Virus record (IMG/VR): IMGVR_UViG_3300031133_000383
Coordinates: 250,635 to 314,634 of that record
Strand: one strand, 5' to 3'
Length of the DNA stretch: 64,000 bases
From: a virus
Lineage: Duplodnaviria; Heunggongvirae; Uroviricota; Caudoviricetes
Shown here: positions 881 to 9,790 of the stretch, one piece after another
How positions within the stretch are numbered: position 1 is the first letter of the stretch
Layout of the letters: each line of letters starts with the position of its first letter
Position numbers and translations under genes: made by a program
The notes under the pieces: model-generated
Seen by the model: only the letters and a program-made list of their open reading frames with translations
The model's database searches: none
Told to the model about the DNA's origin: nothing

Positions 881-1669
881 ATGGGTGGTACAGTTCAACT
901 TGTCGTTCGTAAATCATGTGGTGAAGTTATCGCGTTACCTGTGTGGACCAACAGTATGGCAAATAATATTCTTAAGAATGTTGACTTTTTTTCTGGTGAC
1001 TTTACTGCACTTGATAATTTCATAACTTATCACAACCAACTTCAAAAAGATTATGAACACAATAAAAAGAGTGAAACATTCATGGACAGTAATGCTCGCT
1101 TTTTCGGACAGCATCCATTTGGTAATATTAGACCAGTCGATTACGGTATTGTAGTCGTGGACTTCATTCAAAAACAAATTATTGATATGCAGGATTATAC
1201 TTCAGGAAAAACCCTTTATTTTTCGTTCAAGCGTCATATAGCCAGTGGTGAAGTTCAAATGGTTTCTCTGGAAAGAGAACAAGCCGATGTTAAACGATTA
1301 AATGATTTGATCAATAAAGGTCATGGACTTCAAATGGAACAGCGATATGCAGGTGTAAAGTTTGATATTAGTGATATTCGCACAATGGATGTACTTCTAA
1401 CCCGTGCTTCGCTGGCTTTAAAAGGCGTTGACATACCTATGACAATGGATGTTTTTGGCTACGAATCATTTGCATTAGATGTACACTTTGAACGAAAAGG
1501 ATTTACTCATAGTGAGTTTAATGTTAGAATGATTGACGAAATCAAACAGTGTTATGAAGCCATCAAAACGCTGGATATTCCAATGTCAAGTGATGATGAA
1601 AGTCATTGGGCTAAATTTATCAGTAATCGCGAAAGCATTATTAAAGAAAATGAACAATACGAAAAATAA
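881..1669 (+). CDS. Hypothetical protein, paralog of 6013..6840
   Basis: SD AAGGAG; starts MGG and shares P.DYG..(V/F)DF..K motif with 6013..6840. Confidence 0.7.
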   Translation: MGGTVQLVVRKSCGEVIALPVWTNSMANNILKNVDFFSGDFTALDNFITYHNQLQKDYEHNKKSETFMDSNARFFGQHPFGNIRPVDYGIVVVDFIQKQIIDMQDYTSGKTLYFSFKRHIASGEVQMVSLEREQADVKRLNDLINKGHGLQMEQRYAGVKFDISDIRTMDVLLTRASLALKGVDIPMTMDVFGYESFALDVHFERKGFTHSEFNVRMIDEIKQCYEAIKTLDIPMSSDDESHWAKFISNRESIIKENEQYEK

Positions 1670-7709: not shown

Positions 7710-8414
7710 TTATATAACCAACATTTTCACTATTATGCCATGTGTTTCTTCATCATATTCATCTAGACTATTGACTTGAAGATGATCTTTTAAGGTGGTT
7801 TCTGTTATAAAATGATATAAATAGCTTTTTTTAACTTCATTGTATATTTGCTCAGCAATTGAAGTATCGTCATCTATTTCAATTCTACCTTCTATATCAT
7901 TGTTTTCTGATGAAAATAAGGCCCATAATTTTTTTTCTGCATAAGATGCTTTTAATTGAATAAAAAATGGTTGGCCATTCATTTTTTTTGCTGTGTATGT
8001 ACTGAGTATCACTAAATCGTTGTCTGTTAAAATAAAAAAACTTTTTGATTCTTGTAGTCTATAAACAATATATTCATTCCATATGTCTAATTTTCGAATA
8101 TCTCTGCCTTTTTCAATAAGTTGACGAACTTTTCTTCTGAATATGTCTTCATTATTAATGATTTCAGGTTGTTCTGATACTAACCATTGAATATCGGAAG
8201 GTACGTTATCATATTTAACAACTACTTCTCTCTTGTTTTGAACAATATAATAAAATTTATTTTGATAAATGATATTTTGTTTAGCAATGAATTCACCAAG
8301 AATAATTGTCTTATATGAAGGGAATTCGGCATAAATATTAATGGATTTCAAATATGAAATAATGCCAGAGTATTTTTCATTTGCATTTTTAAAAATATTT
8401 TTAAACTTTATCAT
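7710..8414 (-). CDS. Hypothetical protein with shared C-terminal motif
   Basis: 234 aa; SD GAGGGA; ends IVKMLVI. Confidence 0.65.
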   Translation of the reverse strand: MIKFKNIFKNANEKYSGIISYLKSINIYAEFPSYKTIILGEFIAKQNIIYQNKFYYIVQNKREVVVKYDNVPSDIQWLVSEQPEIINNEDIFRRKVRQLIEKGRDIRKLDIWNEYIVYRLQESKSFFILTDNDLVILSTYTAKKMNGQPFFIQLKASYAEKKLWALFSSENNDIEGRIEIDDDTSIAEQIYNEVKKSYLYHFITETTLKDHLQVNSLDEYDEETHGIIVKMLVI

Positions 8415-8541: not shown

Positions 8542-8575
8542 ACAGCTTGAATAATTTTATTCAAGCTGTTATAAT
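8542..8575 (+). promoter_or_regulatory. sigma70 promoter P1 overlapped by 28-bp palindrome (putative operator)
   Basis: TTGAAT 8547-8552, 17 nt, TATAAT 8570-8575 with TGn extension; ACAGCTTGAATAA-TT-TTATTCAAGCTGT inverted repeat. Confidence 0.75.
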
Positions 8576-8607
8576 AGGTATTATATTATTACTTAGGAAA
8601 AACACCA

Positions 8608-8661
8608 ATGAAAACTACACTAATGACAACATCCTATTATTATTCATACTATTCTCATTAA
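8608..8661 (+). CDS. Putative attenuator leader peptide MKTTLMTTSYYYSYYSH
   Basis: SD AGGA 8595-8598; 8 of last 9 sense codons Ser/Tyr; followed by alternative hairpins and terminator; below ORF-track size cut-off. Confidence 0.7.
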   Translation: MKTTLMTTSYYYSYYSH

Positions 8662-8720
8662 CCGATCTGAGAGTAGGGGTCGGTTACGGCCTCTAGTTCT
8701 TGGGATAGTTTGTTAATCTC

Positions 8721-8755
8721 AAAACCCTTTGGAGGCCACTTCTAAGGGTTTTTTT
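8721..8755 (+). terminator. Rho-independent terminator (putative attenuator terminator)
   Basis: AAAACCCTT(T)GGAG-GCCAC-TTCTAAGGG followed by T7; 5' arm also complementary to 8688-8696 and 8675-8680. Confidence 0.75.
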
Positions 8756-8845
8756 ATGTCTTTATTTGACAGGTCTTCGTTCGACCTTAAATAACATAAG
8801 TTGTTGATTTAAAAGAAAAATATTTAAAATATTTTAAAATAAATG

Positions 8846-8874
8846 TTGACAATGTAAAAAAGACTTGGTAGAAT
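8846..8874 (+). promoter_or_regulatory. sigma70 promoter P2 for tRNA cluster
   Basis: TTGACA-17 nt-TAGAAT with AT-rich upstream tract. Confidence 0.85.
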
Positions 8875-8923: not shown

Positions 8924-9011
8924 GGAAGATTGGCAGAGTGGTCTATTGCAGCAGTTTCGAAAACTGCAGGGTGTCAAAGCTCCGTGAGTTCGAATCTCAC
9001 ATCTTCCTCCA
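8924..9011 (+). tRNA. tRNA-Ser(CGA)
   Basis: Acceptor GGAAGAT/ATCTTCC, anticodon arm GCAGT-TTCGAAA-ACTGC, long variable arm, TTCGAAT T-loop, encoded CCA. Confidence 0.92.
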
Positions 9012-9025
9012 AGTTAAAGTTATAT

Positions 9026-9116
9026 GGTGTGTTGGTAGAGTGGTTGAATACGTCTCCCTGCTAAGGAGATAGGTCTGAAAATGGCCTCGTGAGTTCGAAT
9101 CTCACACACACCTCCA
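9026..9116 (+). tRNA. tRNA-Ser(GCT)
   Basis: Acceptor GGTGTGT/ACACACC, TCTCC-CTGCTAA-GGAGA, long variable arm, CCA. Confidence 0.92.
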
Positions 9117-9138
9117 AATTAAGTTGTAAATGTATTAT

Positions 9139-9222
9139 GGTTAGTTGGCAGAGTGGACGATTGCGGGGGACTGTAAATCCCTTCCGAAAGGCACGGTGGT
9201 TCGAATCCATCACTAACCACCA
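9139..9222 (+). tRNA. tRNA-Tyr(GTA)
   Basis: Acceptor GGTTAGT/ACTAACC, GGGGA-CTGTAAA-TCCCT, A73, CCA. Confidence 0.92.
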
Positions 9223-9245
9223 AATTTAGATGTAATGGTTTTAAT

Positions 9246-9329
9246 GGAGAGATGGCCGAGCGGTTGATGGCACCAGACTGTAAATCTGGCTCGAAAGACA
9301 CACTGGTTCAAATCCAGTTCTCTCTACCA
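9246..9329 (+). tRNA. tRNA-Tyr(GTA)
   Basis: Acceptor GGAGAGA/TCTCTCT (G1-U72), CCAGA-CTGTAAA-TCTGG, A73, CCA. Confidence 0.9.
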
Positions 9330-9433
9330 AATTAGACGTATGGTAATAAGAATTGACGCTTCTTGCAGAAGTTGTCAGGTTTAATGTAATTATTGTTATG
9401 TTATGATAATGGTTGACATCTACCCACCAATAT

Positions 9434-9521
9434 GGAAGCGTGGCCGAGTGGTTTAAGGCAACAGTCTTGAAAACTGTCGGGTGTAACAGCCCCGTGAGTT
9501 CGAATCTCACCGCTTCCGCCA
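9434..9521 (+). tRNA. tRNA-Ser(TGA)
   Basis: Acceptor GGAAGCG/CGCTTCC, ACAGT-CTTGAAA-ACTGT, G73, CCA. Confidence 0.93.
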
Positions 9522-9545
9522 AATTTAGATGTATAGCAATAAAAT

Positions 9546-9634
9546 GGACGCCTTTCCTGTCAGCGGTCTGTAAAACCGCCGCCTTAATAAGACAGGTCGG
9601 TTGGCGTGAGGTTCGAATCCTTGGGCGTCCACCA
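9546..9634 (+). tRNA. Non-canonical tRNA-Tyr(GTA)-like RNA lacking a D-arm
   Basis: Acceptor GGACGCC/GGCGTCC, GCGGT-CTGTAAA-ACCGC, T-arm with TTCGAAT, ACCA end; only 10 nt between acceptor and anticodon stems. Confidence 0.75.
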
Positions 9635-9702
9635 AATTTAGATTTATGGGAAGTATGTGCCATCATTATACTATAATTTTGGTAACTGCTGCCCACCAAT
9701 AT

Positions 9703-9790
9703 GGAAGCGTGGCCGAGTGGGTTAAGGCACTAGTCTAGAAAACTAGCGGGTGTAACAGCCCCGTGAGTTCGAATCTCACCGCTTCCGCCA
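9703..9790 (+). tRNA. tRNA-Ser(AGA)
   Basis: Near-identical copy of 9434..9521 with anticodon arm CTAGT-CTAGAAA-ACTAG. Confidence 0.88.

Follow-up and report, generated by a model that had tools for sequence, protein, structure and literature searches.

A putative leader-peptide attenuator with a Ser/Tyr codon run upstream of a Ser/Tyr tRNA array in a large phage genome

Results

The window analysed here, a stretch of 64,000 nucleotides, comprises bases 250635-314634 of a single 437,043-bp virus genome with 31% G+C, which carries 26 tRNA genes in several clusters. One tRNA array (8924-9790, plus strand; positions given without a genome or contig label are those of the window) is preceded on the same strand by a compact cassette, and the whole is flanked by a minus-strand ORFan (7710-8414) on one side and by minus-strand genes from 10216 onward on the other. 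The cassette consists of a promoter, P1 (8547-8575, TTGAAT-17-TATAAT with a TG before the -10 hexamer), a Shine-Dalgarno sequence AGGA (8595-8598) 9 nt upstream of an ATG, a leader ORF of 17 codons plus TAA (MKTTLMTTSYYYSYYSH, 8608-8661) and an intrinsic terminator, T (8721-8755, -14.0 kcal/mol; stem 8721-8752 with outer CCCUU/AAGGG and inner GGAG/CUUC pairings, seven T residues at 8749-8755), all on the plus strand. A second plus-strand promoter, P2 (8846-8874, TTGACA-17-TAGAAT, TG-extended, 11 of 12 consensus matches), lies after the terminator, and all of these elements were found where an initial annotation of this DNA, made from the letters alone, had placed them. A promoter-proximal short ORF with a ribosome-binding site is thus present, with both Shine-Dalgarno sequence and ORF conserved in relatives, and an intrinsic terminator stands between this ORF and the genes proposed to be under its control.

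The array reads Ser(CGA), Ser(GCT), Tyr, Tyr, Ser(TGA), a Tyr-like gene and Ser(AGA), and is composed solely of tRNAs with a long variable arm (Ser and Tyr). The count of four tRNA-Ser and three tRNA-Tyr genes given initially stands for the four tRNA-Ser (CGA, GCT, TGA, AGA) and for two tRNA-Tyr, all called by ARAGORN, but the third Tyr gene (9546-9634), tRNA-like and non-canonical, has a GTA anticodon arm, was not called by ARAGORN and scores only 23.7 bits, to tRNA-Sec. This gene is conserved in relatives (at 1530-1620, minus strand, of the related contig L256). Its anticodon stem differs on both sides between the window and L256 (GCGGT/ACCGC and TCGCT/AGCGA respectively), which argues for a functional tRNA gene. 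In two relatives a TnpB-type gene (OrfB_IS605, Cas12f1-like; L259:8317-9750 and L260:4071-5504) lies right after the array and in other relatives a PDDEXK_5 gene follows it; the end of the array looks like a hot spot for insertions. Tyr and Ser account for 5.0% and 7.5% of the residues in the long ORFs of this phage. Asn, Lys, Ile and Phe, which AT-rich genomes favour as they do Tyr, are no less frequent, and demand by codon usage would thus not by itself set Ser and Tyr apart.

Codons 9 to 16 of the leader (TCC TAT TAT TAT TCA TAC TAT TCT) are all Ser or Tyr, so that eight consecutive Ser/Tyr codons stand before an array of Ser and Tyr tRNA genes only. Across all six frames of the 437-kb genome, where 0.055 Ser/Tyr runs of at least eight codons would be expected, there are two, one a plain poly-Ser stretch and the other that of the leader ORF; the placement of an ORF with such a run ahead of Ser/Tyr tRNA genes is more than chance. 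SYYYSYY codons at genome 236171-236191 come directly after the TGA stop of a gene and without a start codon, and were treated as a chance occurrence.

Most other tRNA clusters of the genome have a similar promoter-like hexamer pair just upstream, and a leader like the Ser/Tyr one was found before none of them. Other elements do accompany tRNA genes in this phage: a conserved element of about 230 nt occurs in two copies, with a separate promoter ahead of each, one directly before tRNA-Pro/Met and one directly before tRNA-Asn (L283:1-296, genome 385080-385375, and L284:1-296, genome 388270-388565), and a G+C-rich element of about 180 nt occurs in two tandem copies before tRNA-Cys (L282:150-465, genome about 381750-382064). 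No Rfam family matched either the elements before tRNA-Pro/Met and tRNA-Asn or the tandem elements before tRNA-Cys. The genome also holds a tRNA with anticodon CTA, which reads the TAG stop and is labelled Pyl by ARAGORN, and one whose anticodon is called as four bases (agaa), at genome 375947-376020 and 389162-389237 respectively; the pair hints at stop-codon or frameshift suppression.

Three synthetase genes are encoded by the 437-kb phage, namely a full serS (L272:844-2127, genome about 230740-232023; 505 bits to TIGR00414), a thrS-like gene that lacks the N-terminal part of the model (L271:1213-2478, genome about 208838-210103), and tyrS. Upstream of tyrS is a 15-codon ORF, MKATFHFQKSFTVRY, which ends Arg-Tyr-stop (L117:220-267, genome 242919-242966) and starts MKATF, like the MKPTF start of the Ser/Tyr leader in relatives of the phage, and the two leaders may be akin. 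The presence of serS, tyrS and a Tyr-ending tyrS leader in one phage suggests a coordinated Ser/Tyr decoding module.

A pattern of promoter hexamers plus the Ser/Tyr run detected a homologue of the locus in metagenome contigs, L256, which is syntenic with the window and 65-79% identical to it in nucleotides outside the tRNA genes, and homologues of the neighbouring 260-aa protein (54-84% identical to that of the window) led to further contigs from different samples. Ten related metagenomic contigs carry P1, a Shine-Dalgarno sequence, an ORF of 16-17 codons, the terminator and P2 in the same order, with the ORF homologous in all relatives; four further metagenome contigs of identical sequence were excluded as uninformative, and contigs P0012 and P0010 end before the leader. 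A Ser/Tyr-only array is present on every relative contig that reaches far enough, and the arrays of the relatives contain Ser(TGA) and Tyr(GTA) only. Some contigs that carry relatives or identical copies of window genes (those behind L256, L262 and P0001) measure 1.86 Mb, 773 kb and 604 kb, more than the 437 kb of the present genome, and may be larger genomes or concatenated assemblies. Half or more of the sampled sequence words occur in sequencing runs labelled as phyllosphere, leaf and dairy metagenomes, from which we draw no habitat.

Other searches gave no further copies of the cassette. Degenerate scans of IMG/VR for the Ser/Tyr run returned, among the matches listed, unrelated protein-coding ones, and at none of the loci checked (ten from the first scan and all from the second) was the match in an upstream ORF before same-strand tRNAs. 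Matches to a tRNA-Tyr anticodon-arm scan were unrelated phage tRNA arrays. The promoter-plus-run pattern found nothing relevant in IMG/VR and a P2-based pattern gave 0 matches there; the core pattern had 7 matches in GTDB genomes, all without tRNAs and ascribed to chance. When the cassette of the relatives was compared with GenBank phages by blastn only short AT-rich matches were returned, and the tRNA region of a Rak2-like Yersinia phage contained no comparable leader. The neighbouring 234-aa and 304-aa proteins and tyrS had no relatives in IMG/VR by pattern, the 234-aa protein being an ORFan found only on identical copies of the same phage.

Three variants of the leader peptide were obtained: that of the window, the common MKPTF(A/T)VSYYYSSYSS and, in L270, MKPTFKFSSSYYYSYSR. 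They share only MK.T at the N-terminus and their tails also change, but a Ser/Tyr run containing SYYYS is kept in all three, and the putative sensing core TCC TAT TAT TAT TCA (Ser-Tyr-Tyr-Tyr-Ser, 8632-8646, plus strand) is invariant. Changes inside the run are Tyr to Ser (TAC to TCA) and His to Ser (CAT to AGT), and the Shine-Dalgarno sequence of the relatives is GGAG at about the same distance upstream of the ATG. The initial annotation had staked its proposal on the Ser/Tyr run being conserved in relatives that retain the tRNA cluster, and there it is conserved; the four Thr codons that it had flagged as unexplained are not, and are evidently incidental.

Identity was compared along the cassette among those relatives whose neighbouring gene is 72-85% identical in DNA. 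The stretch from ORF to terminator is 97-100% identical, the first tRNA gene 94-100%, the spacer 87-97% and the 5' UTR 76-97%, so that conservation from ORF to terminator equals or exceeds that of the first tRNA gene; the high conservation of the whole cassette could come in part from recent exchange between phages. The copy in the window is the divergent one: its identity to the others is only 78%, with 23 substitutions and a further 10 gap columns between them, and despite this divergence it keeps the ORF and the run and has all four of the helices H1, B, AT and T described below at -12.9 kcal/mol or stronger. We simulated 4000 trials in which 23 random substitutions were placed on the leader of the relatives. 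The ORF stayed intact in 1367 of the 4000 and the Ser/Tyr run of eight was kept in 190, all four helices reached -9 kcal/mol or better in 4 (a strict test, since this threshold is near the relatives' own AT value of -9.3), and helices, run and ORF survived together in 0 of 4000. These results bear on the alternative that the ORF is a chance reading frame beside an ordinary terminator. Short ORFs are common in AT-rich DNA and the region has no more terminator-like sites than shuffled sequences do, as such a coincidence would have it, but with ORF, Shine-Dalgarno sequence and Ser/Tyr run conserved in ten relatives, no simulated leader keeping what the window has kept, and 0.055 runs expected per genome, we regard coincidence as extremely improbable.

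Both promoters show a conserved pattern. In the ten relatives the hexamers of P1 are kept and its spacer is free to vary. Over the -35 hexamer and spacer of P1 lies a palindrome (8543-8569, plus strand) whose arms vary in sequence yet remain complementary (CAGCTTGAA, CCGCTT and GGAATCCTT types, at the same place in L256, L259, L265 and L267), which suggests a putative hairpin or symmetric binding site. In relatives this palindrome is directly 3' of the stop codon of a 300-aa gene, which the window lacks. P2 likewise has conserved hexamers and a varying spacer in relatives and, judged by this usual comparative sign, is a real promoter. Between terminator and P2 a small hairpin (8771-8787, plus strand, AGGTC/GACCT) is also conserved, reading GGTT/AACC in relatives, which amounts to the change of one C-G pair to U-A.

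Five plus-strand helices can form in the leader RNA of every variant, and they overlap pairwise so that each excludes the next. Helix A (8649-8657 with 8668-8676, 9 bp, -9.8 kcal/mol), the hairpin over the last sense codons that had been described initially, exists in the window and is weak in the relatives (-2.4 to -3.7 kcal/mol). Helix H1 (8659-8668 with 8677-8686, 10 bp, -13.1 kcal/mol) has a 5' arm that starts at the U of the stop codon; it is 100% paired across 8 distinct sequences and is also predicted by RNAalifold. Helix B (8674-8682 with 8687-8695, loop GUUA, -13.9 kcal/mol) would act as an anti-antiterminator, and the antiterminator AT (8688-8696 with 8729-8737, outer helix -12.9 kcal/mol) encloses a hairpin at 8700-8706/8716-8722. 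AT is kept through a register shift: the relatives pair GGCCUCGAA with UUUGAAGGCC with one bulge (-9.3 kcal/mol) and the window pairs GGCCUCUAG with UUGGAGGCC with no bulge. The terminator, last of the five, is more stable in relatives (-19.5 to -19.8 kcal/mol). A second antiterminator proposed at the outset (8675-8680/8724-8729) contains a mismatch in the sequences of the relatives and is unsupported. The general layout of an attenuator did hold, and is conserved in relatives, but the wiring first drawn for it had left out H1 and B, through which the position of the ribosome would act on the terminator.

Covariation in relatives, which the initial annotation had named as a check, was found at one position as a single lineage contrast, the window against the rest: G8682 is A in every relative, and its partners C8663 (in H1) and C8687 (in B) are both U. 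The register shift of AT falls under this same contrast. The shuffle control is weak, column shuffles reaching the observed covariation in 59-70 of 500 trials (for H1 and B), and the folding of the leader as a whole has z = -2.3 against shuffles.

Each modelled ribosome was taken to cover the RNA from 15 nt 5' to 11 nt 3' of the first base in its A-site codon. The minimum-energy fold of the full-length window RNA without a ribosome is A + B + T; with a ribosome on codons 11-14 it is H1 + AT, without T, and with a ribosome at codon 15 through to the stop it is B + T. The antiterminator at 8688-8696/8729-8737 with its inner hairpin, proposed initially, is thus the fold obtained with a ribosome on codons 11-14. 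On this predicted switch by ribosome position, the invariant core sits where stalling would give read-through and the variable last codons do not. The leader of the relatives ends in AGT, which is unread by their Ser(TGA) tRNAs, at a position where stalling should not give read-through.

Any slow ribosome on codons 11-14 would give the same fold, and the UAU, UCA and UCU codons of the leader are the commonest Tyr and Ser codons of the phage, as would suit an attenuator that reports general translation capacity, through ribosome-RNA polymerase coupling, and not Ser/Tyr decoding in particular. We think this improbable, given that the eight-codon Ser/Tyr run is expected so rarely in a genome of this size, has been conserved despite codon changes within it (Tyr to Ser, His to Ser) and belongs to a leader that is present ahead of the Ser/Tyr array but at none of the genome's other tRNA clusters.

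In the relatives the full-length folds are not cleanly separated into equilibrium states, T winning at every ribosome position. When the RNA was ended just before 8725 B was favoured over H1 in nearly all states, and when it was ended at 8738 AT was favoured nearly always, by a margin of about 9 kcal/mol with H1 allowed and about 4 kcal/mol with H1 blocked. As equilibrium folding leaves the states unseparated, the decision must be co-transcriptional, or kinetic, as in classical attenuators.

The stability of the relatives' terminator (-19.8 kcal/mol) and its success in every full-length fold also fit a different reading, that P1, ORF and terminator form a free-standing small RNA or encode a 17-residue trans-acting peptide, with termination always efficient and the tRNAs transcribed from P2 only. 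The unit does begin with a promoter, end in a strong terminator and stand ahead of another promoter that is independent and conserved, and there is a precedent in Sinorhizobium, where attenuator RNAs, once released, and leader peptides are both reported to be capable of acting in trans (PMC6614838 and PMC7298713). Left unexplained by such a unit are the conserved codons naming the amino acids of the tRNAs that follow, the retention through a register shift of a segment complementary to the 5' half of the terminator, and the covariation of position 8682 with two alternative partners; the peptide, moreover, is not conserved outside the Ser/Tyr run. We therefore consider a free-standing unit unlikely.

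Discussion

From the arrangement, conservation and predicted folding of the cassette we think it fairly likely that a ribosome-mediated (leader-peptide) attenuator of the his-leader type controls read-through from P1 into the Ser/Tyr tRNA array, and that the cassette probably raises Ser/Tyr tRNA output when ribosomes read those codons slowly. Transcription from P1 would give a short RNA carrying the Shine-Dalgarno site and the 17-codon ORF. With no ribosome on this RNA, A would form and bar H1, leaving B to hold 8687-8695, so that AT would be barred and T would form, stopping transcription at 8755. A ribosome that reached the stop codon would cover the 5' arm of H1 and give the same termination outcome. 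If instead a ribosome were held on the core at 8632-8646 when charged tRNA-Tyr or tRNA-Ser is scarce, A would be masked and H1 free; H1 would then take 8677-8686 from B, allowing 8688-8696 to pair with 8729-8737 and barring T, and RNA polymerase would continue through P2 into the tRNA array. The signal would be slow decoding of Tyr or Ser codons, whatever its cause, and the response more of the same tRNAs.

Attenuators usually have no further promoter after the terminator, whereas here a conserved P2 occupies 8846-8874. The caution entered initially, that P2 might express the tRNAs by itself, was well placed, and P2 has proved to be conserved as well. Because P2 is near-consensus, conserved and positioned after the terminator, the tRNA array is independent of read-through and the attenuator can only add to its expression; P2 would provide a basal supply which the switch supplements rather than gates. 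Polymerases arriving from P1 could also disturb P2. P2 lowers the regulatory weight of the switch, yet it leaves the conservation of the cassette unexplained.

The same switch may have been selected specifically as a counter-defence, in which class II tRNA nucleases would cause stalling and so bring about expression of nuclease-resistant phage copies of the tRNAs. Phage tRNA-Tyr serves as counter-defence in T5 and SP15 against retron-Eco7 and in T6 against Septu, as described in PMC11555353 and PMC13096335, so an anti-defence reading is plausible from the literature. An array of long-variable-arm tRNAs only would suit such a role, as would the failure of codon usage by itself to account for the choice of Ser and Tyr. 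Against it, nothing links this phage to a nuclease, a host or a defence system, a search of PMC11555353 and PMC13096335 brought up no tRNA-Ser nuclease, the switch would be blind to the difference between tRNA cleavage, amino-acid starvation and high demand, and constitutive supply already comes from P2. We hold selection for counter-defence to be possible but doubtful. The closed loop that it would imply, with the ribosome testing tRNA supply on a decoy mini-gene and so switching on replacement Tyr and Ser tRNAs against nucleases of the PtuAB/Septu kind, is an equally tentative proposal.

Leader-peptide attenuation is textbook control of amino-acid biosynthesis and of a few synthetase genes, and a literature search turned up no account of phage tRNA genes governed by a leader peptide or attenuator, the published cases that it found being amino-acid and synthetase genes. 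If the favoured reading, a his-type attenuator governing read-through into the array, is true, tRNA genes are a new target class of attenuation in which the leader codons match the tRNAs behind them. It would also be the most direct feedback possible, with a sensor that measures decoding and an output that is the decoder, and would mean that large phages adjust their supply of tRNAs to demand rather than just expressing them. The cassette is small and portable, at about 175 nt.

The closest likeness is to the enterobacterial his leader (hisL, Rfam RF00514), in which helices A:B, B:C, C:D and D:E and the terminator E:F are mutually exclusive; both have a short leader with regulatory codons and a chain of five exclusive helices. 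Both the window sequence and the relatives' variant L265 align end to end with the His_leader model, helix B falling on the second hairpin of the model and the terminator being aligned too, with scores of 29.8 and 32.2 bits that lie below the gathering cut-off of 49 and so indicate a likeness of architecture rather than membership. Unlike the his leader, the present one has Tyr and Ser in place of His codons, precedes tRNA rather than biosynthetic genes, belongs to a phage and has a second promoter after its terminator.

In multivalent attenuators such as the thr leader (Thr and Ile codons) and the ilv leaders (Ile, Leu and Val), too, several amino acids are represented among the leader codons, in keeping with several products under control, though here the pair is Ser and Tyr and the products would be tRNAs. 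The pheST attenuator of E. coli, where a Phe-rich leader controls phenylalanyl-tRNA synthetase, resembles the proposed system in placing a translation part for the sensed amino acid under leader-peptide control, with the supply of charged tRNA as the signal, but its target is a synthetase and not tRNA genes, and the match of the present leader to the Phe_leader model is weak (17.1 bits). T-box riboswitches, which precede synthetase genes of Firmicutes, also sense the state of one tRNA species and use an antiterminator to govern read-through of a terminator; they differ in binding uncharged tRNA directly, with translation not needed, and the T-box covariance model had no match at E up to 10 for the window leader or up to 5 for L265.

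Among phages the nearest comparison is with T5, SP15 and T6, which share with the present phage the carriage of tRNA-Tyr copies whose expression level matters. In those phages a strong promoter or gene amplification provides the high supply, and the searched passages of PMC11555353 and PMC13096335 describe no sensing element, whereas the present array would be supplied in part through a sensor. A cassette that adjusts tRNA-Tyr output would fit this recent work, in which the level of tRNA-Tyr decides the outcome of retron and Septu defence.
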